A stretch of DNA of 64,000 nucleotides from an uncultured Candidatus Saccharibacteria bacterium (GTDB lineage Bacteria > Patescibacteriota > Minisyncoccia > Phycocordibacterales > UBA5272). Every line of letters begins with the position of its first letter. Positions within the stretch are counted from its first letter, which is position 1. The notes below the pieces were generated by a model. The model saw only the letters and a program-made list of their open reading frames with translations. It was not told the DNA's origin and did no database searches. The DNA is taken from contig CAZIHL010000001.1 of the NCBI GenBank assembly GCA_964538815.1, forward strand, positions 79,034-143,033, read 5' to 3'. Made by a program: the position numbers and the translations under genes. This document shows positions 5,961-45,074 of this stretch, piece by piece.

Positions 5961-8900
5961 ATGAAAACAATAGATACAACAAATTTTGAAGCATTGCAAA
6001 TCAAAATTGCCTCACCAGAAGCTATTAGAGCTTGGAGTTATGGTGAAGTTACAAAGCCAGATACTATAAATTATAGAACTGGTAGAAGCGAAAGATCGGG
6101 TCTTTTTGATGAAAAAATATTTGGGCCAGAAAAAGATTATGAGTGTAATTGCGGTAAATATAGAAGGATTAGGTATAAAGATATTATTTGTGAAAAATGT
6201 GGAGTGCAAGTAACAAAATCTATAGTTCGCCGTGAAAGAATGGGACATATTGAATTGACGACTCCTGTAGCACATATTTGGTTTTTAAAAAGCATACCTT
6301 CAAAAATAGCTTTAGTTCTTGGTGAATCAACAGGAGAAGTTGAAAAAGTGGTTTATTTTGCAAATTATATTATTACAAAAGTAAATGAAAGAGAAAAAGA
6401 AGAACTTTTAAAGAATTTAGAAAGTGAATTTAAAGCAAAAATTAAATCTGCCAATGATGAAAAGACAAAAGAAAAATTAAAAGAATTAATGCTTGCAACA
6501 AAAAAAGAAATAATAGATATTCGTGAAAATAAAATATTAGACGAATTAACATATCATAGATATTCTATGAGATATAGCATAGCTTTTGAAGCTGAAATAG
6601 GTCCAGAGGCCATATATAATATTTTCAAAAAAATAAATTTAAATGAATTAGAAGAACAAATATTAAAAAAATTAGAAAAAATTTCTTCTATAGAAAAAGA
6701 AAAACAAGAAAAAAGACTCTCACTTATAAGAGCGTTTAAAAACGCTGGAATTCGACCAGAATGGATGTTCCTTACAGCTCTTCCGGTAACACCTCCAGGA
6801 ATTCGTCCAATGGTTGCTCTTGAAGGAGGAAGATATGCTACAAGTGATGTAAATGATTTATACAGAAGAGTAATTAATAGAAATAATCGTCTCTTAAAAC
6901 TAAAAGAAATTTCTGCACCAGATGTAATCTTGAGAAATGAGAAAAGAATTCTTCAGGAAGCTGTAGATGCTCTTATTGATAACTCAATGAGAAGAGGTCA
7001 AGAAGCTACAACAATTGTAGGACAAAAGAGACAACTTAAATCTCTATCAGATGGTATTAAATCAAAATCAGGTCTATTCCGTCAAAACTTACTAGGTAAG
7101 CGTGTAGACTATTCTGGTCGTTCTGTGATTGTGATTGGTCCGGACCTCGCTCTTGATGAATGTGGACTTCCAAAACATATGGTTCTTGAATTATTCAAGC
7201 CTTTTGTTATTTCAAAATTACTTGAAAGAGAATTCACCTTTAATATTCGTGGAGCAAATAAATTAATCGAAGACGGTATTCCAGAAGTATGGGAAATTCT
7301 TGAAGAAGTGATTGAAGGAAAATATGTTCTTCTAAACCGTGCTCCAACTCTTCATCGACTTGGTATTCAAGCTTTCAAGCCAAAAATGGTTGAAGGAAAT
7401 GCTATTCAACTTCATCCGTTAGTTTGTACCGCTTTCAACGCGGACTTTGACGGAGATCAAATGGCAGTCCATTTACCTCTTGGAGAAGAAGCGCAAAGAG
7501 AAGCTAGAGAGATTATGGCAGCAAATAAAAATCTTTTGAAACCAGGATCAGGAGAATCTATTGTAAACCCTCGTATGGATATGTTACTTGGATGTTTTTG
7601 GCTTACAACAGAAGTGGAAGGAGTTAAAGGGGAGGGAAAATATTTTGGTTCTCCAAATGAGGCTATCACAGCTCATGAATTTGGAATTGTAGATATTCGT
7701 GCAAAAATTAAAGTTGTCCCAACAAATAAAGAAAAATATAAAAAATTCAACGGTCAAAGATTTGAAACTACGGTTGGAAGATTAAGATTTAATTCAATCC
7801 TTCCTGATGATTTTGAATATATCAATGAACAAGTTGGTGGAAATTATATGAATAAGATTATTGATAAAATAATCATGCAATATGGTTTTGAAAGAGCGCC
7901 AGCTATTATTGATAAAATTAAATCCTTTGGATTTAAATATGCAACAATTTCAGGTACAACTTGGAGTATTGATGCAGTGAGAGTTCCAAAAGAGAAAAAA
8001 GAAATTGTAGAAAAAGGAAGAGTAGAAGAAAGAAAAATTAATGAATTCTACGAATCTGGGCTTTTATCAGAAGAAGAAAAATATCAAAAGGTTATAGAAA
8101 ATTGGCTTTCAATTAGAAAAGAAATTGAAAATATTATGCCAACAGAATCAATTGATAAATACGGTTCAGTATATAACTTAGTTACTTCAGGAGCTAGAGG
8201 TTCAATGAAGCAACTTATACAGATTGCAGGCATGAAGGGAATTATTGTTAACTCTTCTGGAAAAAATATTGATTTCCCAGTTATCTCTTCAAACAAAGAA
8301 GGACTTTCTCCAATTGAATACTTCATTACAACTTACGGTGCCCGTAAAGGTACTTCTGACACAGCTCTTAAGACCGCAGAAGCTGGATATTTAACAAGAA
8401 GACTTGTAGACGTGTCACAGGATATTATTATTTATGAAGCTGACTGTGGTACAAAGAATACTAAACTCTTAACAAAAGAAGACGTAATGGGAATTGAAAT
8501 TCCACTCTCAAAGAGTATTCGTGGTAGAGTTCTTGCACAAGATCTACTTGGCAAAGACGGGAATATAATTCTAAAGAAAGGTCATCTAGTTAAAAAAGGA
8601 GACATTAAAGCCATTACTGATAATGGTATAGAAGAAGTATATGTTTACTCACCACTTTCTTGCGAATCATTACATGGAGTATGTCAAAAATGTTATGGTG
8701 CTGACCTTGCAAGAAATGAACTTGTAAAGATTGGTGAAGCGGTTGGTATTGTGGCAGCACAGGCGATTGGAGAGCCTGGAACACAGCTTACAATGCGTAC
8801 ATTCCACTCAGGAGGAGTGGCGGGAGCCGACATTACACAAGGTCTTCCTCGTGTTGCGGAAATCTTTGAAAGACGGGTACCGAAAAATCCTGGTGTTATT

Positions 8901-9697: not shown

Positions 9698-11434
9698 ATG
9701 AATCCGAAAGATCAAATCAAACAAGCCATTTCCATACTTGATGTGGTTTCAACTTATGTTAGGCTTGAAAAATCAGGATCACAATTTAAAGGTCGTTGTC
9801 CATTTCATAATGAAAAGACTCCTAGCTTTTATGTTTCTCTTGAAAGAGGAACTTATCATTGTTTTGGCTGTAGTGAACATGGAGATATTTTTTCTTTTAT
9901 TGAAAAGATGGAAAGTGTACCATTTTATGAAGCTTTAACAATACTCGCAGAAAGGGCGGGGATAAAATTAACTCCATTTAAAAAAGAAGAAAAAGATAAA
10001 GAATCAAATCTTATAAATCTTTTACAAACATCAGTAATACATTATGAAAATAATTTAAGAGATTCTGCAGAAGCTAAAATGTATTTAGGTGAAAGAGGTT
10101 TAACACAGGAAACTATAAAAAAGTTTAATATTGGTTTTGCTGTTGGTGGTGAGGTTGGCTGGAGAAATCTTTTTATAAATTTATCAAAAGACGGTTTTTC
10201 TCCTGAAGAAATGATAGCCGCAGGAGTTGTCGTAAAAAAGGAAGGTGAAGAAAAGTTTTTTGATAGATTTAGGGGTAGGATAATGTTTCCAATTAAAAAT
10301 ACTTTTGGAAATGTTGTAGGATTTTCAGCGAGAATTTTACCAAAATACGACGATGGTAAAATGGGGAAGTATATAAATTCTCCTGAGACAGTAATTTATC
10401 ATAAAAGTAAAGTTTTATTTGGCTATGATGCTGCTAAAAAAAGTATTACAGAAAAAAAGGAAGCAATACTTGTGGAAGGGCAAATGGATCTTATAATGAG
10501 TCATCAAGTAGGAGTAGAAAATGTGATAGCAACTTCTGGGACAGCAGTTACAGAGGAACATATTAAAATTTTAAAAAGATTTGCAGATAGAGTATTACTT
10601 TCTTTTGATCAAGATACTGCTGGGGAAGCGGCTATGAAAAAATGCGCTATGCTCGCTCTTTATGGAGGACTTGATGTTTATATTATTCCAAAAAAGGATG
10701 GTGTAAAAGATACGGCTGACTTAATAAAAGATTTTGGTGGTGAAGAATGGAAAAATTTAATCTCAAAAAGAGTCCATTTAATAGAATATTTACTTTCAAA
10801 TATTTTTAAAAGTATTAGCGATGAAAGAGAAAGAGGTAAAGAAGTACGAGCTCAAATTTTGCCATTTCTAAAAGCCATTGAAAGCGATATAGATAGAGCT
10901 TATTTTATAAAATACATTGCGCAAAAATTAAATATTCAAGAAATAGATATAGTAAACGACATTAAAAAAATAAAAGTAGAAGATAATTTTGTAAAGGAAG
11001 AAAAAATAGAAACAAATAATACTGAAAATATTTCTAAGAAGATTAAATTAATTAAAGAAATATTTGCAATATTAAAATGGAAAAATATTGAAGAAGAAAA
11101 ATTTTTACATAAGTTTTTTGAAGAAGATGTAAATATAAAAGAAAATATATTAGAAGATAAAAAGAATATACCAGAAGAAATAATTGAAAAAGAAATAATA
11201 AAAATAGAAAAAGAATTTTCTAAAAATCCGAATTATAAAGAAAGTGAAAAAAAAATTATAAATGAGTTTCTTTTTGATCTTGTAAAAGCGTACAAGTTGG
11301 AAATGGTAAAAGAGAAAATAAAATTATTAGAGAGTAAGAATGAAGAAAATAAAAGCGAAGAAGACTTGAAAAATATAGTTATTTTGTATAAAAATCTTCA
11401 CAAAATAAAACAAGAAAAGTTTCTAAAAAATTAA
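9698..11434 (+). CDS. dnaG: DNA primase
   Basis: CHC2 zinc finger CPFHNEKTPSF...HCFGCSEHGD and TOPRIM region EGQMDLI. Confidence 0.9.
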   Translation: MNPKDQIKQAISILDVVSTYVRLEKSGSQFKGRCPFHNEKTPSFYVSLERGTYHCFGCSEHGDIFSFIEKMESVPFYEALTILAERAGIKLTPFKKEEKDKESNLINLLQTSVIHYENNLRDSAEAKMYLGERGLTQETIKKFNIGFAVGGEVGWRNLFINLSKDGFSPEEMIAAGVVVKKEGEEKFFDRFRGRIMFPIKNTFGNVVGFSARILPKYDDGKMGKYINSPETVIYHKSKVLFGYDAAKKSITEKKEAILVEGQMDLIMSHQVGVENVIATSGTAVTEEHIKILKRFADRVLLSFDQDTAGEAAMKKCAMLALYGGLDVYIIPKKDGVKDTADLIKDFGGEEWKNLISKRVHLIEYLLSNIFKSISDERERGKEVRAQILPFLKAIESDIDRAYFIKYIAQKLNIQEIDIVNDIKKIKVEDNFVKEEKIETNNTENISKKIKLIKEIFAILKWKNIEEEKFLHKFFEEDVNIKENILEDKKNIPEEIIEKEIIKIEKEFSKNPNYKESEKKIINEFLFDLVKAYKLEMVKEKIKLLESKNEENKSEEDLKNIVILYKNLHKIKQEKFLKN

Positions 11435-11578
11435 TTTTAAGAATAATTAACAATTTCAGGTGTATATTTGTAATATTTCTTGCTTTTTTTTGTAATCTAA
11501 TATATACTATTAAAAATTTGACAAGGGTGTGTTTATGTATGCTCAATTTAATAATTATTTAATCAGAGTAAAATTATT

Positions 11579-12991
11579 ATGAATAAAAAAATAAAAAAAA
11601 CAATTAAAAAATCTGTTAAAAAAACAATTAAAAAAACTAAACCATCTACCAAAAAAACAATTAAAAAAACTATAAATAAAAATTCGAAATCTATAAAAAA
11701 AACTACTAAAAAAGTAGTTAAGAAAAAAGTACTCAATTCTAATTCTCGGGAGTTTGTAAATTTAAAAGTTTTAACATCAAAAGAAAAATTAGAAGAAAAA
11801 AAGAAAAAAGAAATAAAAAATGCTAAAGATAAAAAAGAGAGAGCTAAAAGAATAGAAGAAAATAAAAAAAAGATAGCAAAAGAAAAAAAGAAAATAGAAA
11901 AATTTAAAACAATTAAACGTAGTAAATCAGAAGAAGAAAGATTTTTAAAAGAAACTGAAATTATAAAAAAGGGTAAAGAAAGAGGATTTATAACATACGA
12001 TGATATTATAAAAATATTTCCAGATTTAGAAAAAGATATTACATATCTAGATGAGCTTTATGAAAAGCTGGCCGTAGCTGGTGTTGATATCTTAGATGGA
12101 AGTAGTAATCTGTTAGATATAGATGAAGATTTAAACAAACTCTCTGATGGTGAAAGTAATCATGACAGCATTCAAATTTATTTAAAAGAAATAGGTCAAT
12201 ACCCTTTAATTTCTTCTGAAGAAGAAAAAGAACTTGCAAAAAGAATTGAAATGGGAGACGAAGAGGCGAAAAGTATATTAATGAAAGCAAATCTTCGCCT
12301 CGTAGTTACTTTTGCTAAAAAGTATGTTGGAAGAAGTCCAAATCTTACACTTTTAGACCTAATACAAGAAGGAAATCTTGGATTGTTTAAAGCTGTAGAA
12401 AAATATGATTTTAGTAAAGGTTTTAAATTTTCAACTTATGCTTGTTGGTGGATTCGTCAGGGTATTACTCGTGCGTTAGCTGATCAATCTCGTACTATTC
12501 GTATTCCAGTACACATGGTAGAAACTATTGCAAAGTATAAACAAGTTTTAAGAAGATTATCACAAGACCTTGGACGTGAACCTCTTGCAGAAGAAATTGC
12601 TGACGAAATGGGGATAGATGTAGAAAAGATTCATGTGATTGAAAATATCGATCAAGAAACTCTATCACTTGAAAAGCCGACAGGAGATGATGATGACAAA
12701 TCATCACTTGGAGAATTTGTTTCTGATGATAAAATCCTTTCCCCAGATCAAGAAGCAAGTAGAAGAATACTAGCAGATCAAATAAATGAAATATTAATGG
12801 ATCTTTCAGAAAAAGAAAGAAAGATTGTAGAAATGAGAAACGGGTTAGGTGTATATAATGGAGTTATGCATACACTTGAAGAAGTGGGAGAAGAATTTCA
12901 AGTAACTCGCGAAAGAATCCGCCAAATAGAAGCTAAAGTTCATGAAAAAATTCGTGACCATGAAAAAGCTTATAGATTAAAGAATTTTTAA
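11579..12991 (+). CDS. rpoD: RNA polymerase sigma-70 factor RpoD with lysine-rich N-terminal extension
   Basis: Regions 2-4 ([42 protein letters not shown]) and an N-terminal KKT[IV]KK repeat tail. Confidence 0.9.
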
Positions 12992-34919: not shown

Positions 34920-35134
34920 TGTATATTAAAGTGAAAATCCAAACTGAATCTAAAAAAGAGTCTTTTGAAAAAGTAAAAGATGATACTTTTAATATTTCTG
35001 TGAAAGAAGAAGCTAGAAACGGCTGGGCAAATGAAAGAGTGATAGAGATTTTAAAAAAAGAATTAAATAAGAGAAATGTAAGATTGGTAGCAGGGCACAC
35101 GAGTCCAAGTAAAATATTTTCAATTGAAGATTAA
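34919..35134 (+). CDS. DUF167/YggU-family small protein
   Basis: Pattern G-W-AN..vIeiL...l......v.lvaGhTSpsKif.I typical of UPF0235. Start codon overlaps the trmD stop (ATAATG). Confidence 0.55.
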   Translation: MYIKVKIQTESKKESFEKVKDDTFNISVKEEARNGWANERVIEILKKELNKRNVRLVAGHTSPSKIFSIED

Positions 35135-35169
35135 CTGCTTTTTTGTTATAATTTTAAAAAATAAGTTAA

Positions 35170-35242
35170 GCCAATATAGCTCAGTTGGTAGAGCACATCC
35201 ATGGTAAGGATGAGGTCATCAGTTCGATCCTGATTATTGGCT
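35170..35242 (+). tRNA. tRNA-Thr(GGU)
   Basis: Acceptor GCCAATA/TATTGGC, anticodon stem CATCC/GGATG with loop ATGGTAA, T-loop TTCGATC. Confidence 0.85.
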
Positions 35243-35375
35243 CCAGTTTTGTAGAAAAAGACACAGAAGACCCAAGAGAGTGGGACGCGCTCCGCTCGGC
35301 AACCCCGAAAGAAAAATGTCTCTTGCTTTTTTGATTTGCGCAGGTTTTCGCTTCGGGATTTTTCGGCGGCGGCTA
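35241..35375. repeat. left arm of a 135-bp terminal inverted repeat (IR-L)
   Basis: Reverse complement of 38331..38466 with only about 4 mismatches. Begins within the last nucleotides of the tRNA-Thr (ctccag). Confidence 0.85.
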
Positions 35376-35404
35376 TGGACAAAAACGACTAAAACTGCTA
35401 AAAT
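35376..35404 (+). promoter_or_regulatory. putative sigma70 promoter TGGACA-N17-TAAAAT giving a near-leaderless transcript
   Basis: Hexamers and spacing read directly from the sequence. The ATG at 35414 lies about 3-5 nt from the predicted TSS. Confidence 0.45.
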
Positions 35405-35413
35405 TCATTTCAT

Positions 35414-38323
35414 ATGGAGAAGCCACATTTTGAAGCACGATTTGGACAAACAAAGAAGACGCTTGAATCTTCGCGAGCGGAAATAAATGAGTTTTTGAAA
35501 CAAGAAACTCTCGACGAACGAGATAGAGTTCGCCTCACTCGTGTTTTGCAATTAGTAGAACGCTATCAACCGGAACGAGAAGTTGAAGAACCAAAAGTTA
35601 ATAAGTGGCGAAGCTATCTCGAAAGCGTGTATCGTTTTTTACCGAGTCGAAAAAAAACGCAAAAACCAATTGAAAATATTTCCGCTCGCTCATATCTACT
35701 TGCTGAAAAAACAATCGCTTCACTTCGGGAACTTCAACATGTAGATTTCCAACTTGAACAAGAAAGTGGATTTTCTGAAGAAGAAGTTTTAAATCAAGAA
35801 CGACCGAGTAAAGTTGAAAGAGAGGAAACATTAGACACTTCTCTTACACTTGAATACGAAAAGAAAAATTGGGGTGTAGAACGAGTTTGTCTTGATGGTG
35901 TGCAAAATCACTTGCCATCAGACTCAAAAGGTGAGCATGTTTGGGTAAGATGTTTAGTTGGTGGCAAGTGGGTTTCTTTGACAGAAGCAAAAGACAAAAA
36001 AGATCAAATAGAAGCGGTGAGATTTGCAGACGATGGCGTTGGTTTTGATGTAAAAAATCTAGTACTTTTATATTCCACAAAAGCGGAGGAAAAAGAATCT
36101 CGCGGACAATTTGGAGAAGGTATGAAAATGATGGCCGCCGCGGCTCTGCGGGAGGGCTTGGAGCCGGAAATGGAATCTCAAGACTGGCGCGCAAAGCCAA
36201 CACCAAAAGAAGTAGAGGTTTTTGATACACGACATCAAAAAGAACGAGTTATTCAACAACTCTCGTTTAAAGTTGACTATTTAGCTGGCGAGCCAATGAT
36301 TGGTTCTCGCACTACTTTTCATAAGCCAACCGAAGCGTTTGTTGACGAGTTAATGCAAATTGAAAAGAAAGTTTTGGCTTTGCGCGAAAATTATCGTCCC
36401 GTTTTTGTGGGAAGTACGGGCGAAATTGTAGATCGTGAATCAGGAAGTCTATTTGTAAAAGGAATTTATGTTAGAGGTAAGAAAACTTTGTTTTCTTACA
36501 ACTTTGAAGATGTTGAAACAAACCGAGATCGCAACAGAATTGTTTCAGAAGGTTTAGAAAGAAGAATTGCAAAAATAGTTCAAGAAATTTCCGATAAACG
36601 ATTGGTTAAAACAATGCTTCAAAAAAGTATTGTGGAACCGGACGCAGTTGAAAGTTCTTTTTATGATCTAAGAGCCGAACATCCAACAGTATGGATTGAG
36701 GGATTTTATGAAGCATTTGGAAAAGATGCAGTTCTGGATACAGGTTTCAAAATCCCCGATACTTTCAAAGATAAGCCGTTGAACAAAGTTAAAGTGCCGT
36801 CTGGCATGCAGAGTTTGCTTTTGCGAGCGGGAGTAAAGACCGACCAAGAGGTCACACCTGATTTTTGGGAGGAAACAATCCCGACTTCCTTAACTCTTGA
36901 ATACGGAAAAGATATTTGGAATGAGGAAAGAATTTTACTTGACGCGGTGCAAAATCATTTACCGCACGATTCCGGCGGTTTAAATATCGGTTTGCGTTTC
37001 AAAACTAAAGATGGCAAGTGGCACTCATTTAGAGATTTACCAGATATTAAAGACGAAGAGGTAGAGTCCGTAAAAATTTATGATGATGGACGCGGATATG
37101 ACTCTCGTTTGCTCGGTTTTTTCTACTCTACAAAAGGAGAGGGTGAAAGCACCGGAAAATTTGGCGAGGGTTTGAAAATGTTGTGCATAGCTTCACTACG
37201 CAAGGGTATTGATATGACTTTGCGTTCTCAAAATTGGTCATCGAAACCGAGAGCGTTACGACAAGAAGTTGATGGAAAGCAAATTGATCAGCTTGTTTTT
37301 GATGTAATTCACGCTGTTAAAAAACAAGAAATGGACGATGATGAGGGGCTTTATCAAAGCAGTTCAACTACATTTTCAAACCCGACGCCGGAATTATTGC
37401 AAGAATTTCGCCAAATTAACAAAAAAGTTCTCGCAATAGAAAGAGCAAAACCAGTAGAAAGAACTTCAAATGGAGATGTACTTTCGCTTGATGGAGGAAT
37501 GGTTTATGTGCGAGAACTTTTGATTCCAGGAGACCACAATTTGCTTTTCACTTATCATTTGCCGAGATTGGAAATTAAAAATCGAGACCGAAGTTTTGTT
37601 GACCAACAAGAACTTACTCCGGCTATCGCAGGGGTATGGTCGGAGACCGAAAATCCTGAAGTTATCAAAAGTTTTCTTTTCAAAGCAAATTTGGAAGCGC
37701 AAAAAGGTGGCGGAAAAGATAAGGTCGAATTTTCGATGGATTTTACCCCCAAAGATACTGAAAACTGGAAAAAGATTTTCGAGGAAGTTTTTGGAAAAGA
37801 TACCGCTATTCGCGATATGCGCTCGGAAGATTTTGACGCTATGCAACAAAATATGCATGTCGGTTTGGAACTTGTATCTTTTCCAAGCGCAACATATCAA
37901 GTTTTGAAAAGACTTGGATTGCCAACATATGAATCTCGTTTATCTGAAATGACCGATGTGGAGCATATTCCTAACGAAGAGCTAACAGCAGAAGAAAAAG
38001 CGTTATTGGAGGTTTTAACAGCGATTGATGAATATTTACCGAACAATAGGCCGTCTGAGATTAAAGTCTATAAGCGCAAAACAGATGGTCAAAAAGTTGC
38101 AGCTGGTTTTGCTGATGGTGTAAATATTCATCTTTTGCGCGAAATTCTATCTGATTTTACTCACGCGGCAGATGTGTATGTTCACGAGAAAACGCATCAT
38201 AATACCGGTGGCGCACAAGACGCAAGTTCAGATTTCAGAAATTACCTAAGTTTTGCGCTGGGCAAGATGGCGTTAGATCAATTGAAAAAAGTTCGACCAG
38301 ATTTAGTAAAGACAGAGAGTTAA
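35414..38323 (+). CDS. 969-aa protein with two tandem GHKL (Bergerat-fold) ATPase modules and a C-terminal HExxH motif
   Basis: A duplicated module of about 350 aa. Each copy has an N-box-like LD[GA]VQNHLP.D, a G1 box DDG[VR]G[FY]D and a G2 box G[QK]FGEG[ML]K (Hsp90/MORC-like). C-terminal VYVHEKTHH. Foreign codon usage (CGN arginine, higher GC). Confidence 0.7.
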   Translation: MEKPHFEARFGQTKKTLESSRAEINEFLKQETLDERDRVRLTRVLQLVERYQPEREVEEPKVNKWRSYLESVYRFLPSRKKTQKPIENISARSYLLAEKTIASLRELQHVDFQLEQESGFSEEEVLNQERPSKVEREETLDTSLTLEYEKKNWGVERVCLDGVQNHLPSDSKGEHVWVRCLVGGKWVSLTEAKDKKDQIEAVRFADDGVGFDVKNLVLLYSTKAEEKESRGQFGEGMKMMAAAALREGLEPEMESQDWRAKPTPKEVEVFDTRHQKERVIQQLSFKVDYLAGEPMIGSRTTFHKPTEAFVDELMQIEKKVLALRENYRPVFVGSTGEIVDRESGSLFVKGIYVRGKKTLFSYNFEDVETNRDRNRIVSEGLERRIAKIVQEISDKRLVKTMLQKSIVEPDAVESSFYDLRAEHPTVWIEGFYEAFGKDAVLDTGFKIPDTFKDKPLNKVKVPSGMQSLLLRAGVKTDQEVTPDFWEETIPTSLTLEYGKDIWNEERILLDAVQNHLPHDSGGLNIGLRFKTKDGKWHSFRDLPDIKDEEVESVKIYDDGRGYDSRLLGFFYSTKGEGESTGKFGEGLKMLCIASLRKGIDMTLRSQNWSSKPRALRQEVDGKQIDQLVFDVIHAVKKQEMDDDEGLYQSSSTTFSNPTPELLQEFRQINKKVLAIERAKPVERTSNGDVLSLDGGMVYVRELLIPGDHNLLFTYHLPRLEIKNRDRSFVDQQELTPAIAGVWSETENPEVIKSFLFKANLEAQKGGGKDKVEFSMDFTPKDTENWKKIFEEVFGKDTAIRDMRSEDFDAMQQNMHVGLELVSFPSATYQVLKRLGLPTYESRLSEMTDVEHIPNEELTAEEKALLEVLTAIDEYLPNNRPSEIKVYKRKTDGQKVAAGFADGVNIHLLREILSDFTHAADVYVHEKTHHNTGGAQDASSDFRNYLSFALGKMALDQLKKVRPDLVKTES

Positions 38324-38330
38324 TTTCTTG

Positions 38331-38466
38331 ATAGCCGTCGCCGAAAAATCCCGAAGCGAAAGCCCGCGTAAATCAAAAAAGCAAGAGACATTTTTCTTTC
38401 GGGGTTGCCGAGCGGAGCGCGTCCCACTCTCTTGGGTCTTCTGTGTCTTTTTCTACAAAACTGGAG
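38331..38466. repeat. right arm of the 135-bp terminal inverted repeat (IR-R)
   Basis: Reverse complement of IR-L. Ends with ctggag (revcomp ctccag). Confidence 0.85.
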
Positions 38467-38530
38467 TGTCTTTATGACTTCGCTCGAACTTACTTTATCA
38501 AAAATTCCTAATGAATCCAAATGCGGACTC

Positions 38531-38574
38531 GGTTTTGCCAAACTATTTTTCTGGGGAAAAGGATTGGCAAAACC
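38531..38574 (+). other. stable hairpin (11-bp stem ggttttgccaa/ttggcaaaacc, 22-nt loop)
   Basis: Perfect complementarity seen directly. Followed by a GC-rich segment and a T8 run at 38636..38643, possibly a terminator for read-through from the 969-aa gene. Confidence 0.4.
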
Positions 38575-38705
38575 TCGGCTGTTTTCCCGCCCGCAGGAGG
38601 GGTCTGGGGAGGAATCCGCATGGGCTGGGCTTCCGTTTTTTTTGTGGCTAAAATGGCTTAAAAACAAAGGTTTTTTAGAGTTAAACTAGGTTATAGCGAT
38701 TTGGC

Positions 38706-38734
38706 TTGACAAAATAGACTAGATATGCTATACT
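38706..38734 (+). promoter_or_regulatory. consensus sigma70 promoter TTGACA-N17-TATACT
   Basis: Perfect -35 hexamer, 17-nt spacer, near-consensus -10. Predicted TSS about 38741. Confidence 0.6.
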
Positions 38735-38954
38735 TAACGCATAATTTGAGGCGGTAAAAATACTCCTTAAATTATGTAAATTGTTCTTTGATAAGCGAGA
38801 TTAGTGAAAATTTCTTTTGCTCTACTACTTCGTGAGTAGCATAGTATGTATCTCAATTTGAGGTATCTAGTGTGCTACTCATGTTGAGGAGCCCTTGATG
38901 CGAGGAACGTATCATTAAAAAAAAATTTTTGATATGATATTATGGTCTAACGAG

Positions 38955-39698
38955 ATGGGCGAGAGGGGGCGAGGAGCCTGGCTGTTATTTATAAAGGATG
39001 ACGAAGTCATCGTCTTCCGCGGCCAGAACATCCCCGGTGTGGTCGTCGTGCGCGGCACGGACTACACCAAGAACGGGAAGTGGTCTCACACCACCTACCG
39101 CCTCCAGCTTGTCCCTGGAGTTCGCCAGATAGCCGGATACTCCGGCTGGGAAACCGGTCGGTTCGTCGAAGGCCTCGGCTCCGCCGTTGGCTGCGCAACG
39201 CCCGACACGTGGGCGGACACGGCCAAGGCTCTTGGGGTTTCGGTCCCGAGCGTGATGGAGTTCCTGCGGAGCTGGCGTCCGAAAGCCGCGGCGAAGCTGG
39301 ACGAAGTCGAGCAGGCGTTGGCCGATCTCGAGGAAGCCTCCTCTCAACAGGAGACCGACTCGGTGATCGTTACCGTCTCCTTCGGTTCGCCGACCAACCG
39401 CGCCATCAGCGATGGCTACTGGGTGGCGCCGAAGGCGATCCCGGGCTACAATGCGGAGATCCACCTGAAGGATCGCTCGCAGGGCTGGAACGAGGGGAAC
39501 ATCGAGGTTGTCGGAATCTCCGGCACCATCCTCTCGGTCAAGCACTCGGCCGGAATGCACGGCGGTTACTACGCCGTGTCGGTCGCGGTGATACCCGGAA
39601 CGGAGACCGAGATCCCGCCCTTCGAGACCAGCAAGCCTTGTAACGGTGGTAACACCGTGTTGGGCGATGCCCTCCGTAAGGCAGGGCTCCGCAGCTAG
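38955..39698 (+). CDS. hypothetical protein encoded by a very high-GC, GC3-rich foreign CDS
   Basis: A 744-bp frame with GC3 almost entirely G/C and balanced amino-acid composition. The alternative frames are Arg/Gly-rich junk. The ATG at 38955 marks the switch from AT-rich to GC-rich sequence. The in-frame upstream ATG at 38934 is an alternative start. Confidence 0.6.
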   Translation: MGERGRGAWLLFIKDDEVIVFRGQNIPGVVVVRGTDYTKNGKWSHTTYRLQLVPGVRQIAGYSGWETGRFVEGLGSAVGCATPDTWADTAKALGVSVPSVMEFLRSWRPKAAAKLDEVEQALADLEEASSQQETDSVIVTVSFGSPTNRAISDGYWVAPKAIPGYNAEIHLKDRSQGWNEGNIEVVGISGTILSVKHSAGMHGGYYAVSVAVIPGTETEIPPFETSKPCNGGNTVLGDALRKAGLRS

Positions 39699-39747
39699 TC
39701 TCGTATCGTATTTCCAGTTTGAGAGGACTGGGTTAACAAAACCTCTC

Positions 39748-39799
39748 TCTGTCGATAAGTGTGTTACTTATCCTGATGAGTCCGAAAGGACGAAACAGA
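39748..39799 (+). ncRNA. hammerhead ribozyme, type III topology (open stem III)
   Basis: tctGUC cleavage site, then stem I GATAAG-tgtgtta-CTTATC, then CUGAUGA, then stem II GTCC-GAAA-GGAC, then GAA, then ACAGA pairing with UCUGU. Every conserved core position is present. Confidence 0.8.
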
Positions 39800-39931
39800 T
39801 TGTACCTTGAGAAAATTTAGTTCTCTCGTGAGTAGCGCAATGGATGTCTTAAAAAGATTTCTAGTGCTGTCGGATACTTCGGACCAATTACGAGAGGGGA
39901 AATAAAATAAAAATAAATTTATTGTATAGAA

Positions 39932-39968
39932 TAACTCCATAGCTGTCAGTCGGGAGTTATTTTTTATT
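39932..39968 (+). terminator. intrinsic terminator
   Basis: taactcc-(14-nt loop)-ggagtta followed by ttttttattt. Confidence 0.6.
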
Positions 39969-39999
39969 TCTCACAATTTTGTTAAAATGTGCTTTAAGG

Positions 40000-40073
40000 C
40001 CATCTTAGCTTAGTTGGTAGAGCACTTCACTCGTAACGAAGAGGTCTCGAGTTCGATCCTCGGAGATGGCTCA
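40000..40073 (+). tRNA. tRNA-Thr(CGU)
   Basis: Acceptor GCCATCT/AGATGGC, anticodon loop CTCGTAA, T-arm TCGAG-TTCGATC-CTCGG. One A:C mismatch at the base of the anticodon stem. Confidence 0.8.
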
Positions 40074-41771: not shown

Positions 41772-42704
41772 ATGAGTAAAACAAGTATATCAATAAAAAG
41801 AATTCTCAAGTCAGGTTTTTTAAATTTTATTAGAAACAAAACGGTTTCTTTTTCTTCTTTAGCAATTCTGACAGTCACTTTACTTATTATAGGTATTTTC
41901 TTCTTTTTTAGAGGTATTTTCGATTATTCTTTAAATGAAATACAAAATAAGGTTGATATAAAGATTTACTTTAAATTAGATGCTGAAAATTCTCAAATAA
42001 ATAATGTATTTCAAAAAATAAAAAATCTACCAGAAATAGAATCTGTGTCTTTAACAACAGCGGAAGAAGCTTTGGTTGATTTTCAAACAAAACATTCAAA
42101 TGATCCGGTAACTTTAGAAGCTTTAAAAGAAGTTGGTAATAATCCTTTTGGAGCTATGATAACAGTCGTAGCTAAAGATACAAATAGTTATGAGTCTATT
42201 TCAAACACTTTAAATGATAGGCAAGGATTTTTAGGAGATGATTATAATAGTATAGATAAAATAAATTATTTTGAATTAAAGTCCACAATAGATAAATTAA
42301 ATAATATTATAAAATGGGTAAATAATGCTGGGTATTGGATAGCCTTAATTTTCATAATTATAAGTTCTCTTATTATATTTAATACTATTCGTCTTTCAAT
42401 TTTTATATTTAGAGAAGAAATTTCAGTAATGAAGCTTGTAGGGGCTTCAAATATGTATATTCGAGGCCCATTTTTAATTGAGTCTACAATATATGCTTTT
42501 ATTTCTACAATATTAGCAATGCTTATATTTTTACCAATAACTTATTGGGTTTCAGAAAAAACAGTAGTATTCTTTAATGGGTTGAATATATTTAATTATT
42601 ATTTAAATAATTTCTTTTCTTTGTTTATTTTATTATTAATAATAAGTTTTGTATTAGCTTCAATATCATCAATAATGGCGATGAGAAAGTATTTAAAAGT
42701 TTAA
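41772..42704 (+). CDS. ftsX: cell division permease FtsX
   Basis: Immediately downstream of ftsE. One N-terminal TM, a periplasmic domain and three C-terminal TMs. Confidence 0.8.
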   Translation: MSKTSISIKRILKSGFLNFIRNKTVSFSSLAILTVTLLIIGIFFFFRGIFDYSLNEIQNKVDIKIYFKLDAENSQINNVFQKIKNLPEIESVSLTTAEEALVDFQTKHSNDPVTLEALKEVGNNPFGAMITVVAKDTNSYESISNTLNDRQGFLGDDYNSIDKINYFELKSTIDKLNNIIKWVNNAGYWIALIFIIISSLIIFNTIRLSIFIFREEISVMKLVGASNMYIRGPFLIESTIYAFISTILAMLIFLPITYWVSEKTVVFFNGLNIFNYYLNNFFSLFILLLIISFVLASISSIMAMRKYLKV

Positions 42705-42737
42705 TTTATGTTATAATTAAAATATAATTAAAATTAT

Positions 42738-45074
42738 ATGTCATTTAAATTAAAAATAATTAATTCTTTTTCAATTCTATCTTTTTTAGTAGCTTTAATA
42801 ACTTTAAGTAGTTTTTTTTTATTGAAAATACCATTTTTAGATAATTATATATCTTTAGATGCTAATAAAAGTCTATTTTTATTAGGGATGACATCAATTT
42901 CTTTGATATTATTTTTAATATCTGCATTTTTAAATAAGAATATACATATACCTGAAAATAAAATAACTAGAGCTTTCTTTATCCTTATTCCTTTATTTTT
43001 AATAATTTCTATATTATTTTCCCAAAGTATTCCAAATTCTTTTTTTGGTAAATATGTGTTTTTCCAAAGCGGAGCAATATATTTGTCATTATTCACTTTA
43101 TTTTACATAATAGCATATAAGATTAAATATTATAAGAAATTAACATGGATTATTTTATTTTTGAGTAATTTGTCGATAACAATATTATCTATTTTAGCTG
43201 TTGTATTTAGTAAGTTTAATTGGATTAATTTAATAAATAAAATAAGTTATTTTATAGATGGTTGGGACACTACAGCAATAGCTTGTTCTATAGTTATTTT
43301 TATAACGCTTGTTTATTTAGAAAATAATTCCTTAACAAAATTCCAAAAAATATTATCTATATTTATAGTAATTATTCATACTTTATTATTAATTTGTATT
43401 ATAATGCCAGATATTTGGTATGCTGTATTTTTTACTGTGCTATTTATATTTATAACTAGTAAAAACATAAAATTTTTTTATAAAAAGACTTCTTTTTATA
43501 TTCTTTTAATATCTTTTGTGATGTCATTCTTAATTCTTTTTTCAAATGGCGGATTCACAACTAATATAGTAAATAAAATTACAAATTTTACAAATAATTA
43601 TTTAAAAATTAATTATAGTTTTGTAAAGCCTAATATTGAAACTAGTTTGTCTTTGGCGGGCAAAGAATTATTTAAAGGTAAATTGTTTGGTGTTGGTCCT
43701 AACGATTTTTATAAAGTCTGGCAAATTCAGAAGACTGATTCAGTTATAACTTCTAGTTATTGGAATACAGACTTTGTTTCTTCTTATTCTGCTTTTACTA
43801 CTCTGTTAGTAACTTTAGGTGTAGCTAACGTTTTATTATTTATAATAATTTATTTTGCTATTGGTATAAATTTATTTAAAAAACTCAAAAAAGAAAATAA
43901 AGAAAATGATATTTTAGATTATCAAAATAAATTTTACTTATACTCTGCTATTACTATTTTTATTTTCTCATTTTTCATATTTTTATTTTTTGCAAACATT
44001 TCAATTTCTATTATTTTAATGGTTTTAGCTATATCTATAGTATCTTCTAATAATATTAAATGGAAAAATAGTAAAAATTATTTGATTAAATTTTTACTAG
44101 TTTTACTATTTATAGCTGTATTTATAGGGTTATTAATATCTATAAATAAAGTAAGAACAAATTATATTTTTACTAAAGCTATTAAGAATTATCAAACAGA
44201 TAATAATATTTCAAATTTAGAAACTTCTTTCATAAAAGCTGTTAATTTATCTAAAACTGATTCAAGTTATAGATTATTGACACAATTTTATATTTTTAAA
44301 TCACAATTAATATTAAATAGTTCTTCTACAGATATAGAAATCAAAGGAAAAGAATTTTCAGATTCTATTAATAATGCTATAAATTCTGCCAATATGTCCA
44401 TCAAATTAGATAGTAATGATTATTATAATTACATAATTTTAGGTTCCATTTATGATTTTTTGATTCCTTTAAATGAAGAAAATAAAAATAATAATTATAA
44501 TCTAGCCAAAGAAGCATATAATAAAGCTTTAATTCTTTATCCAAAAAATCCATCAATTTATTTAACTTTAGCTCAATTAGAATATAATTCTAATCAAAAT
44601 AAAGAAACAACAATAGAAAATTTGAATAAATCTTTACAAATAAAACCAAATTATTCTCAAGCTTTATTTATTTTTTCACAATTGTCTTTACAAAATAATG
44701 ATAACGATAATGCTATGGAATATGCTCTTAAAGCTGTGCAATCAGATCCTCGAAATATAAATGCTCTTTTACAGTATGGGTTTTTACTTATAAATAAAAA
44801 AGATGTAAAAATAGAAGACTTAAATCAAGCATACACTGCATTTATCACAATTTTAAATCTAGATCCAAACAATGTGGTAGCAGCTTATAATTTAGGAGTC
44901 ACTTATATATTAGCTGGAGAATATGATCAAGCTCAAAATGTTATAAATATTTTAAAGCAAGTTTTACCTAATGATGAAAAAATTATAGAATTAGAAAAAT
45001 ATTTATCAATTATAAGAAATAATAATTCTAATAATAAAGATATTAAAAATACTGAAAGTAAAGATCATAAATAA
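42738..45074 (+). CDS. polytopic membrane protein (O-antigen ligase/Wzy-like) with C-terminal TPR repeats
   Basis: At least 10 hydrophobic segments followed by TPR-like repeats (AYNKALILYPKNPSIYLTLAQLEY...). Confidence 0.5.
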   Translation: MSFKLKIINSFSILSFLVALITLSSFFLLKIPFLDNYISLDANKSLFLLGMTSISLILFLISAFLNKNIHIPENKITRAFFILIPLFLIISILFSQSIPNSFFGKYVFFQSGAIYLSLFTLFYIIAYKIKYYKKLTWIILFLSNLSITILSILAVVFSKFNWINLINKISYFIDGWDTTAIACSIVIFITLVYLENNSLTKFQKILSIFIVIIHTLLLICIIMPDIWYAVFFTVLFIFITSKNIKFFYKKTSFYILLISFVMSFLILFSNGGFTTNIVNKITNFTNNYLKINYSFVKPNIETSLSLAGKELFKGKLFGVGPNDFYKVWQIQKTDSVITSSYWNTDFVSSYSAFTTLLVTLGVANVLLFIIIYFAIGINLFKKLKKENKENDILDYQNKFYLYSAITIFIFSFFIFLFFANISISIILMVLAISIVSSNNIKWKNSKNYLIKFLLVLLFIAVFIGLLISINKVRTNYIFTKAIKNYQTDNNISNLETSFIKAVNLSKTDSSYRLLTQFYIFKSQLILNSSSTDIEIKGKEFSDSINNAINSANMSIKLDSNDYYNYIILGSIYDFLIPLNEENKNNNYNLAKEAYNKALILYPKNPSIYLTLAQLEYNSNQNKETTIENLNKSLQIKPNYSQALFIFSQLSLQNNDNDNAMEYALKAVQSDPRNINALLQYGFLLINKKDVKIEDLNQAYTAFITILNLDPNNVVAAYNLGVTYILAGEYDQAQNVINILKQVLPNDEKIIELEKYLSIIRNNNSNNKDIKNTESKDHK

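Follow-up and report, generated by a model that had tools for sequence, protein, structure and literature searches.

A compositionally foreign island between two tRNA-Thr genes of a Patescibacteria genome, with a tandem GHKL-like gene and a GC-rich gene followed by a predicted hammerhead ribozyme

Composition and boundaries of the island

In the 64,000-nucleotide (nt) stretch of contig CAZIHL010000001.1 (assembly GCA_964538815.1) that was analysed here and is termed the window, the interval between the genes for tRNA-Thr(GGU) and tRNA-Thr(CGU), at 35246-39995, was found to contain two coding sequences (CDSs), an inverted repeat and a series of predicted RNA elements, including a hammerhead ribozyme (Table 1). 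The first CDS encodes a protein of 969 amino acids (aa) that resembles two Hsp90-type ATPase modules in tandem, and the second, gene A, encodes a 254-aa protein of a family whose genes are rich in guanine and cytosine (GC). The analyses below suggest that the interval is probably a mosaic of horizontally acquired mobile DNA that has taken the place of a resident gene.

Table 1. Features of the island and of its two borders (positions in the window)
Feature	Position	Strand	Description
tRNA-Thr(GGU)	35170..35245	+	Left island boundary; ARAGORN; Rfam 67.4 bits; homology of relatives ends at its 3' end
Left inverted-repeat arm X	35241..35383		Begins in last 5 nt of the tRNA; repeat search; blastn to L040, L041, L043, L051, L072
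Promoter-like site TGGACA-17-TAAAAT	35376..35404	+	Upstream of 969-aa gene; 10/12 matches, TG-extended; consensus scan only
969-aa CDS	35414..38323	+	Two tandem Hsp90/sacsin-like GHKL ATPase modules (predicted), C-terminal HExxH (H924-E925-x-x-H928); GC 0.40
Right inverted-repeat arm X'	38324..38466		Outer end is the complement of the tRNA 3' end (CTGGAG)
Structured element	38500..38645	+	Hairpin 2 (GCGGACUCGGUUUUGCC...GGCAAAACCUCGGCUG), then hairpin 3 and T-run, terminator-like; cassette border in other loci
Cassette promoter TTGACA-17-TATACT	38706..38734	+	Upstream TG; near-consensus, 11/12 matches
AT-rich 5' leader	38741..38933	+	21-bp leader hairpin 38834-38881, small hairpin ~38897-38913
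254-aa CDS (gene A)	38934..39698	+	Conserved uncharacterised GC-rich family; GC 0.63, GC3 0.80; second ATG 38955
H-type pseudoknot or hairpin (predicted)	39714..39747	+	S1 CCAG 39714-39717 / CUGG 39728-39731; S2 GAGAGG 39721-39726 / CCUCUC 39742-39747; directly 5' of ribozyme
Type III hammerhead ribozyme (predicted)	39746..39801	+	Predicted cleavage after C39753 (GUC|); Rfam RF00008
Truncated second leader hairpin	39825..39866	+	Remnant of junction to missing second cassette (gene B)
Weak terminator-like hairpin (AACUCC...GGGAGUU) and T6	39933..39965	+	Read from sequence; not called by consensus scan; AT-rich tail unique to this genome
tRNA-Thr(CGU)	39999..40072	+	Right island boundary; ARAGORN, Rfam; homology of relatives resumes at 39996-39997

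The DNA of this interval is compositionally foreign. Outside it the window has a GC content of 28.5%, and the flanking genes specify arginine mainly by AGA, in keeping with the original prediction, which had put the flanks at about 30% with arginine nearly always AGA. GC was 0.387-0.557 in the five 1-kb bins over 35001-40000 and 0.185-0.363 in the remaining 59, 35246-39995 was the sole compositional outlier of the window, and 300-nt windows reached a maximum of 0.66 near 39150-39449. Moreover, when 41 non-overlapping open reading frames (ORFs) of at least 150 aa were scored against the pooled synonymous codon usage of the window, the two strongest outliers were the 254-aa ORF (z = -20.0) and the 969-aa ORF (z = -4.6), followed by an ORF at -1.9. 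GC at third codon positions (GC3) was 0.80 and 0.30, respectively, against a background of 0.161 +/- 0.034, and the 969-aa gene contained 43 CGN versus 18 AGR arginine codons. These calculations agree with the abrupt change of composition that had been noticed between the two tRNA genes, and with the earlier description of a 2.9-kb CDS of higher GC with CGN arginine codons. The second CDS had been described as 744 bp long and about two-thirds G+C; its GC is 0.63 (0.66 in the densest part), and 744 bp is the length from the second in-frame ATG, the first ATG giving 38934-39698. Within the island, three composition classes adjoin one another (0.40, about 0.30 in the leader, and 0.63-0.66). Composition and codon usage are thus as atypical relative to the host as those of a tRNA-associated genomic island.

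DNA homology (blastn) with three relatives (L077, L078 and L079) stopped at 35243-35245 and restarted at 39996-39997, which confirmed the limits of 35241-39995 proposed at the outset. The nearest PrfB homologues (78-80% identity) belonged to metagenome-assembled genomes (MAGs) named Paceibacterota, Nomurabacteria or Pacebacteria. The order of genes in the three relatives was RNase R, S16, KH, TrmD, DUF167, tRNA-Thr(GGU), a slot X, tRNA-Thr(CGU), zero to three genes, PrfB, FtsE and FtsX, and slot X held a ferric-reductase-like FAD/NAD-binding gene of 1.4-1.8 kb, which was split in L077. No remnant of this reductase gene was found in the window by tblastn. The original prediction had raised the possibility that the two tRNA-Thr genes are adjacent in related genomes; since they flank the reductase-like gene there, the island points to cargo replacement in a variable slot and not to insertion between neighbouring tRNAs. 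The segment from tRNA-Thr(CGU) to prfB also varied in these relatives, in which it contained no genes, or HD-domain, HAD-hydrolase and hypothetical genes. Because this segment is variable too, the whole stretch from DUF167 to prfB is a hot spot of gene turnover.

The location at a tRNA and the absence from the syntenic site of all three relatives are features of a genomic island. No recombinase or integrase ORF was present in 35246-39995, as had been stated for transposases, integrases and recombinases alike, and the borders carried no attL/attR-type direct repeats except for the two different tRNAs themselves (73% identity). An inverted copy of the tRNA 3' end was located at 38461-38466. The earlier view that insertion beside a tRNA gene marks horizontally acquired DNA was upheld insofar as the interval is foreign, bounded by tRNAs and absent in three relatives, and had to be amended in that it replaced a gene and is a mosaic of units.

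Gene A, its RNA elements and the related cassettes

The 254-aa ORF had more than 224 homologues at 55-86% identity, and the named ones were annotated as 'hypothetical protein' of Patescibacteria MAGs. In a profile search of 1.84 billion representatives, the threshold of E <= 1e-3 was passed by 606 clusters and that of E <= 1e-10 by 333; the family thus numbers at least 606 clusters (50% identity). In the family alignment, a core of about 235 aa and a C-terminal tail were conserved. An in-frame insertion of about 90 aa was optional; the window protein did not have it, and neither did some other members. Identities at the three codon positions were about 0.87/0.89/0.66, and the ratio of nonsynonymous to synonymous substitution rates (dN/dS) was 0.07-0.27. 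To judge from these values the family is under purifying selection, and because of them gene A is read as coding for a protein and not as a structured RNA. An AlphaFold (AF2) model of the protein reached a mean predicted local distance difference test score (pLDDT) of 86. The protein had no match in Pfam, NCBIfam, PADLOC or PHROGs, a profile search of the PDB gave nothing below E = 0.1, Foldseek against BFVD gave nothing at E <= 1e-3, and tblastn of 50,697 phage records gave no match. IMG/VR contributed one distant family locus (L023), on a contig of 67% GC.

To place these results in context, 62 family loci were gathered from GTDB genomes, JGI metagenomes, IMG/VR and Logan/ENA contigs. The GC of the family gene was 0.53-0.70, compared with 0.28-0.67 in DNA more than 1.5 kb away, and it exceeded that of the flanks in 37 of the 39 testable loci, the window showing the largest contrast. 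Because the gene was GC-rich in these 37 loci whatever the host, while its own promoter and leader were AT-rich, the high GC (63%; 66% in the densest part) is a trait of the family and not the signature of a donor genome. Furthermore, synonymous divergence (dS) to the closest relatives was 0.4-0.9 with G or C retained at third positions, so that these genes are not very recent copies of one another. The GC-richness is kept either by selection or by constant horizontal turnover through a pool of GC-rich elements, two alternatives that are inseparable with these data.

Gene A is accompanied by a set of conserved RNA elements on both sides. The promoter hexamers and a ATATGCTATA box were conserved in four loci (L074, L041, L007 and L036), the leaders of which were 77-85% identical to that of the window, and promoter and leader were AT-rich across hosts of 28-46% GC. 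Two consensus sigma70 promoters had been proposed for the island. The cassette promoter stands as near-consensus and conserved in the four loci; the site upstream of the 969-aa gene is weaker, and promoter-like sites overall (11) were not above the expectation from shuffled sequences (7.0 +/- 2.6). In the leader hairpins, 11 of 30 pairs showed compensatory changes among 17 sequences. Immediately 5' of every hammerhead lay a covarying hairpin or pseudoknot, the 3' strand of which touched stem III. In the subgroup of the window this is predicted to be an H-type pseudoknot; it was found in 13 of 15 examined 3' untranslated regions (UTRs), in which S1 occurred as CCAG/CUGG, ACAG/CUGU, GGGU/AUCC or GGAG/CUUC and S2 in five variants, and the stems covaried. 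The S2 hairpin also appeared in the minimum free energy fold.

The hammerhead ribozyme that had been reported for the island was recovered as a predicted, catalytically complete element. It matched RF00008 over the full length (E = 1.8e-7) at 44.2 bits, under the Rfam gathering cut-off of 48.5, and the related copies scored 33.7-44.7 bits. It is composed of stem I (39754-39772), CUGAUGA (39773-39779), stem II (39780-39791), GAAA (39792-39795) and the 3' strand of stem III, which extends to 39799. The core contained the CUGANGA and GAAA segments, the A15.1-U16.1 pair and a non-G residue at H17 (C39753). In an alignment of 13 distinct copies, all of 195 cells paired in the three helices (stem III open) and 10 of 15 pairs were compensatory, compared with 36-47% pairing in slid-partner controls. 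In total, 27 type III hammerheads with a complete structure were counted in related loci, and every one was on the strand of the gene. In Rfam searches at gathering thresholds and at E <= 10, the matches in the island were the two tRNAs and the hammerhead only, with no model for the leader or the 5'UTR motif. With regard to the island's own terminators, which had likewise been proposed, two candidates can be read from the letters, namely a hairpin with T8 at about 38590-38641, conserved in L040, L051 and L072, and the weak hairpin with T6 at 39933-39965; a scan of the plus strand called none. Uhrbacteria-type copies (L010, L011, L013, L017, L060 and L066) were without CUGAUGA and shared a 3' element (GGAGGUUCUAGGCCUCC ... 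CCUAGA ... CAUGGAAACGGAGG) before the terminator, which may be a different processing or regulatory RNA.

At many loci a second leader followed downstream of the ribozyme, consisting of a 21-bp hairpin, a small hairpin, the motif TTCACGCYCACGG...CCACGRGCA and an AGGAG Shine-Dalgarno sequence, and then another GC-rich ORF. An intact second leader preceded gene B in L007, L035/36, L040/41, L043, L050, L072 and L074. In the closest subgroup of the window, gene B encoded a conserved protein of about 305 aa (MYQFTTLDPRNIPAA...) with a GC3 of 0.75-0.88 and no Pfam match. Hammerheads were located on both sides of a gene in L045 (141-191 and 1560-1610), and several were present in L003 (5654 and 7082) and L054 (3810, 4755 and 7421). 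An RNA excised between two hammerheads would have a 5'-OH and a 2',3'-cyclic phosphate at its ends. RtcB-type ligases act on such ends, and circular mRNAs are thus conceivable.

When the window was compared with L074, L041, L007 and L036, the promoter and both leader hairpins had been kept, and about 39 nt holding the TTCACGCYCACGG...CCACGRGCA motif and the AGGAG Shine-Dalgarno sequence had been lost, with an A/T run in their place and the first codons rebuilt. In addition, the second leader of the window ended at about 39862-39866 (blastn of the 3' UTR), and gene B was absent. Several genes recurred as neighbours of the cassettes, including a divergently oriented TrmB-family regulator (13 loci), a large serine recombinase (six loci), a PIN protein and paralogues of the 254-aa family. 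In L040 (2328-3578, minus strand; 1670-1756; 6364-6468) and L041 the cassettes formed a two-cassette element with an rve-type DDE transposase inside it. On either side of this element were perfect inverted repeats, at least 105 nt long, and inverted copies of tRNA-Leu(CAG). A palindrome with 50-nt arms starts at the tRNA 3' end in these two loci. tRNA or tmRNA genes adjoined the cassette in about a dozen loci. In L007, a Moraniibacteriota MAG, a transfer-messenger RNA (tmRNA) gene (4752-5153, minus strand, 115 bits) precedes the cassette promoter by about 600 nt and is a further indication that integration takes place next to small-RNA genes.

The neighbours and relatives of the 254-aa family also give hints as to its function. 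Csx3-like ORFs of 116 aa (Pfam, 34 bits) occurred among the cassette neighbours, together with DUF1874/STIV B116-like ORFs of about 110 aa (Pfam E = 1e-3; PDB 2J6B, AFV3-109, E = 0.017 over near full length), and in three family members the N-terminal domain was fused to Cas_VVA1548. VVA1548 has been equated with csx16 (PMC3936711), and Csx3 (Crn3), DUF1874 (Crn2/AcrIII-1) and Csx16 have all been described as ring nucleases of cyclic tetra-adenylate (PMC12409355). Because these neighbours and fusion partners are ring-nuclease-like, an accessory or anti-defence role of the mobile element tied to cyclic-oligoadenylate signalling may be the likeliest function of the 254-aa protein, a tentative guess that we ourselves hold to be doubtful. 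In addition to the fused members (P0414, P0462 and P0466), there are many other relatives that consist of the N-domain by itself (about 135 aa).

The 969-aa gene and the inverted repeat

The 969-aa protein consists of two homologous halves, which form a direct repeat (D1). Among 26 homologues the invariant residues were N165, D206/G208/G210 and G231...G234-E235-G236 in the first half, and N514, G559/G561 and G581...G584-E585-G586 in the second. The motifs of GHKL (Bergerat-fold) ATPases, that is, the Asn of motif I, DxGxG of motif II and GxxGxG of motif III, were accordingly conserved. The AF2 model (pLDDT 83) gave Hsp90/TRAP1 N-domains as its top 14 Foldseek matches (probability 0.87-1.0, E = 2e-3 to 1e-2), which suggests a fold similar to that of solved GHKL domains. 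By profile, the protein matched phrog_6077 (E = 2e-32), weakly a sacsin-type domain, and HATPase_c at 21 bits, under the cut-off of 26.4 bits; it had no significant Pfam or NCBIfam membership, no PDB match by sequence and no PADLOC match. The protein is similar to sacsin/Hsp90-type GHKL ATPases in that the N-box Asn, DxGxG and GxxGxG are kept in both halves and the top structural matches are Hsp90 N-domains, and it is unlike them in being a tandem duplication with a C-terminal HExxH and without the middle or C-terminal Hsp90 domains. Distant relatives with a single module were found in a Moorella phage and several Vibrio phages.

Nearly all of the 93 homologues of the 969-aa protein belonged to Patescibacteria, and their neighbourhoods all differed. 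The gene was absent near gene A in 20 of 20 GTDB loci (tblastn), and it was not seen in 42 further metagenome loci in which recurring ORFs were clustered, so that a conserved pair of the 969-aa gene and gene A, which had been considered, was rejected. Because the GC3 of the gene is 0.30 versus 0.16 for the host in the window, and host-like (0.19) in L027, a 31% GC genome, its later arrival in the window is consistent with the data. In L024 (7800-7997) and L025 (50-247), a 65-aa XRE-type helix-turn-helix (HTH) gene lies directly upstream of 89%-identical homologues, within an inverted repeat; this HTH gene is not in the window copy.

The 969-aa gene is enclosed by an inverted repeat that had been given as 135 bp; the repeat is present, and its arms (35241-35383 and 38324-38466) measure 143 nt at 95% complementarity. 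Arm X was homologous to palindrome 0 and to the 5' half and loop of hairpin 1 at the borders of cassette elements. Specifically, positions 26-104 of arm X matched the tRNA-proximal cassette border of L040, L041, L043, L051 and L072, where both arms stand side by side as a long imperfect hairpin ('hairpin 1'), and the 234 nt to the right of X' (38467-38700) matched the region after the L040 border (72% over 204 nt). In the structured element that follows, RNAalifold gave eight pairs with compensatory changes, and the strands of the stem were swapped in L051 and L072; the corresponding fold of L040 had a z of -6. The hairpin loop AAACUAUUUUCUGGGGAAAGGAUU of this element is conserved. Other loci carry the element in inverted orientation and downstream of the second cassette, and it could represent a small RNA or an element border. 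A different inverted repeat of 55 nt flanked the HTH gene and the 969-aa gene in L024 (89%-identical homologue), and this repeat aligned with the 3' half of hairpin 1.

In the window, one-sided loop sequence is duplicated in X' as well, and so is the tRNA 3' end, as its complement. Given these duplications and that of border sequence, the best description of the arrangement is that the element border was duplicated in inverted orientation and that the 969-aa gene lies nested within this duplication. Simple insertion of the 969-aa gene into the loop of hairpin 1 was excluded by the same duplications. The proposal that the 969-aa protein is the transposase of a unit bounded by the inverted repeat was unsupported, its predicted fold being of the GHKL type.

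Origin of the island and comparison with known elements

The reading that we consider probable is that 35246-39995 is horizontally acquired mosaic mobile DNA that replaced a resident ferric-reductase-like gene in a variable tRNA-Thr slot of an approximately 28% GC, Paceibacteria-like (Patescibacteria) genome. The island is not taken as one unit, because the 969-aa gene is unlinked to the cassette loci and the contexts of its homologues all differ. A GC-rich cassette element would first have integrated beside the tRNA; when intact, it presumably comprised a tRNA-proximal palindromic border, hairpin 2 with its terminator, a promoter, a leader, gene A, the pseudoknot and hammerhead, a second leader and gene B. 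An inverted-repeat-associated gene for the tandem-GHKL/HExxH protein would then have nested in an inverted duplication of the element border, and deletions would have taken the recombinase (if ever present), gene B, and the 5'UTR motif and Shine-Dalgarno sequence of gene A. As far as the conserved anatomy indicates, the promoter at 38706-38734 would drive a transcript whose 5' end may be shielded by the leader hairpin. Hammerhead cleavage leaves 2',3'-cyclic phosphate and 5'-OH ends. A cut after C39753 would yield an mRNA of about 1.0 kb ending in the pseudoknot and six nucleotides with a 2',3'-cyclic phosphate. The same cut would part the mRNAs of cassettes A and B in intact relatives, and in the window it would uncouple the cassette from the downstream tRNA.

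Several points weigh against this reconstruction. The window is without a recombinase, att-type direct repeats and a transposase, the mechanism of integration is drawn from relatives only, and the order of events is itself reconstructed. Because the 5'UTR motif and the Shine-Dalgarno sequence have been lost, gene A of the window may no longer be translated, and its dN/dS against relatives is slightly higher (0.15-0.27). The data do not tell selection for GC from transfer that was repeated and recent; the nearest relative is at a dS of at least 0.4. Cleavage by the hammerhead is a prediction for an element that scores below the Rfam threshold, and about two thirds of family loci were without a hammerhead within 260 nt downstream, so that the ribozyme is not obligatory for the family. 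Moreover, the S1 helix of the pseudoknot is short (3-4 bp), the 3' UTR folded no better than shuffled sequences when pairs were nested (z = -0.99), and the association with ring nucleases involves a minority of loci and two weak profile matches.

Other explanations were weighed against the same evidence. A single-step genomic island, that is, an element of a GC-richer donor that integrated en bloc at the tRNA, later lost its integrase and shows the composition steps of its donor, would fit the tRNA-bounded position and foreign composition, the serine recombinases and tRNA or tmRNA genes that adjoin related cassettes, and the derivation from a cassette border of the arms around the 969-aa gene, by which parts may have arrived joined. 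We regard it as unlikely, however, since the two genes were never found together in 62 other cassette loci (20 by tblastn) or in eight other loci of the 969-aa gene, three composition classes stand side by side, gene A is rich in GC whatever the GC content of its host, so that the donor-composition account fails for it, and there are no flanking direct repeats beyond the two different tRNAs. Still less support is given here to an integron-like cassette array, in which the leader or 5'UTR motif would be an attC-like site for recombination of single-stranded DNA and the window would hold one captured cassette. Such an array would account for a non-coding motif that recurs in consecutive intergenic regions with different ORFs between, and for the DUF1874-like ORFs among the cassettes, a pattern described previously (PMC5737381). 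With respect to attC-type sites, repeated structured elements do stand before and after each ORF, and they include a functional-looking ribozyme and a motif linked to the Shine-Dalgarno sequence. The array appears improbable to us, as no IntI-type tyrosine recombinase was found at array ends in the loci examined, where serine or DDE types were found, and as the elements are strand-specific, have a Shine-Dalgarno sequence immediately ahead of the start codon and occur together with hammerheads whose catalytic core is complete, which argues for a role at the level of RNA. IntI and attI were absent from the window and from the recurrent or Pfam-scanned neighbour ORFs of the 62 loci, not every ORF having been scanned.

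An artefact of assembly, by which a GC-rich stretch of another organism would have been mis-joined at the inverted repeats, must be considered for a MAG, given that such genomes are prone to mis-joins at repeats and that the 143-nt repeat breaks unitigs. A 2.5-kb Logan contig from another run (L001) ran unbroken from the spacer through the promoter, the GC-rich ORF, the hammerhead and the tRNA-Thr(CGU) region to prfB, and a 3.1-kb contig of that run (L002) spanned one arm, the 969-aa gene and the other arm and ended inside both arms. Independent contigs thus support the right side and the segment of repeat, 969-aa gene and repeat, the left join of the tRNA to X being seen in this assembly alone. 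Because these contigs reproduce the joins, a chimera is unlikely; the same layout of promoter, leader, ORF and hammerhead occurs in AT-rich flanks in L015, L036, L040 and L070, and X' bears the complement of the tRNA 3' end, and we consider it very unlikely indeed. The idea that the 66% GC 'CDS' is a large structured non-coding RNA with an accidental ORF is more improbable still. In an AT-rich genome, a GC-rich segment is often a structured RNA; in this stretch, two further frames also contain long ORFs, and conserved RNA structures lie on either side of it. This idea is effectively refuted by the codon-position identities and dN/dS given above, by domain-sized in-frame indels, by the confident AF2 model and the absence of an Rfam match, and by the alternative frames, which are Arg/Gly/Pro-rich junk. 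A more far-reaching version of the cassette interpretation would see in the window a decayed copy of an as yet undescribed system of Patescibacteria-wide, mobile, self-processing 'armoured mRNA' cassettes with a 5' leader hairpin, a conserved regulatory 5'UTR motif, a GC-selected ORF and a 3' pseudoknot followed by a cyclic-phosphate end made by the hammerhead, and in the cargo (254-aa family, gene B, Csx3-like, DUF1874-like and Csx16-fused proteins) an anti-cyclic-oligoadenylate repertoire. GC-richness could then serve, for example, to resist an AU-specific RNase or for expression during shut-off of host RNA, and the two-hammerhead RNAs (L045, L003 and L054) could be circularised by an RtcB-type ligase. 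We offer this version as speculation with little likelihood.

With replacement by mosaic mobile DNA as the preferred reading, the island can be compared with known systems. The original prediction held that the gene content fits no familiar island type, a statement that did not survive, since the content resembles ribozyme-delimited gene cassettes of mobile elements. Clustered hammerheads flank single genes in bacterial prophages and mobile elements, and the role proposed for them there is to divide long transcripts into mRNAs of one gene each (Perreault et al. 2011, PMC3088659). As in those cases, complete hammerheads were found here on the coding strand between varied genes near recombinase genes, with flanking on both sides in L045, L003 and L054. 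In contrast to those cases, the hosts are Patescibacteria, a hairpin or pseudoknot precedes and a leader hairpin and 5'UTR motif follow each ribozyme, the ORFs are systematically GC-richer than their hosts, and the window has one ribozyme, with a promoter in place of the upstream one. No paper linking hammerheads with Patescibacteria was found in the literature. Furthermore, a multistem 'DUF1874 motif' has been described in the 5' UTRs of consecutive genes and linked to DUF1874 genes, with an attC-like role of the DNA under consideration (Weinberg et al. 2017, PMC5737381). Compared by description, the cassettes probably match these arrays, as they share the layout of motif, ORF, motif, ORF and have DUF1874-like ORFs; unlike the arrays, the window copy has lost the motif.

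The island resembles tRNA-associated islands in its location at a tRNA 3' end, its foreign composition and a slot content that varies among relatives, and it differs from them in lacking an integrase and att direct repeats, in its inverted duplication from the tRNA end, and in that a resident gene was replaced and not displaced. Retrozymes, viroid-like RNAs and Obelisks are like the cassettes in having a type III hammerhead and in their unit size of about 1.1-1.3 kb, which is also that of many contigs of the family. The units described here are, in contrast, DNA-encoded in bacterial chromosomes with promoters and no reverse transcriptase, and the ORF family is unrelated to anything annotated. 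A circular Obelisk-like unit was rejected: the contigs of 1.1-1.2 kb show no terminal overlap and run from within the 5'UTR motif to a point within the hammerhead core, so that both ends fall in repeated sequence, and the unit also lies in chromosomal contigs of up to 845 kb. Contigs of this size arise because assemblers break at the repeated leader and hammerhead elements, which argues against a circular replicon. The ribozyme-delimited cassette belongs to a known kind. The island is not of a new type; it is what remains, in mosaic and decayed form, of mobile modules that can be identified. What appears to be new is that the GC-richness persists, that RNA elements on the 5' and 3' sides are conserved, and that the family is spread so broadly in Patescibacteria.

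The mobile elements and gene-expression strategies of Patescibacteria (the candidate phyla radiation, CPR) are poorly known, and the locus leads to a family of at least 606 clusters that has no annotation or known fold and keeps 53-70% GC even in genomes of 28% GC. It also raises a clear question, namely why amelioration fails to alter the base composition of a gene family. In addition, the cassettes provide a natural setting for the role of bacterial hammerheads in defining mRNA 3' ends and separating cassettes, as well as a probable biological context for the orphan 'DUF1874 motif', and the links to ring nucleases suggest a role in counter-defence. For annotation, the lesson is that a sharp GC island need not show the composition of its donor.

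Elsewhere in the window, very AT-rich stretches were observed at 11001-12000 and 42001-45000 (GC 0.185-0.22, well under the window mean), the second of which lies just downstream of ftsX.

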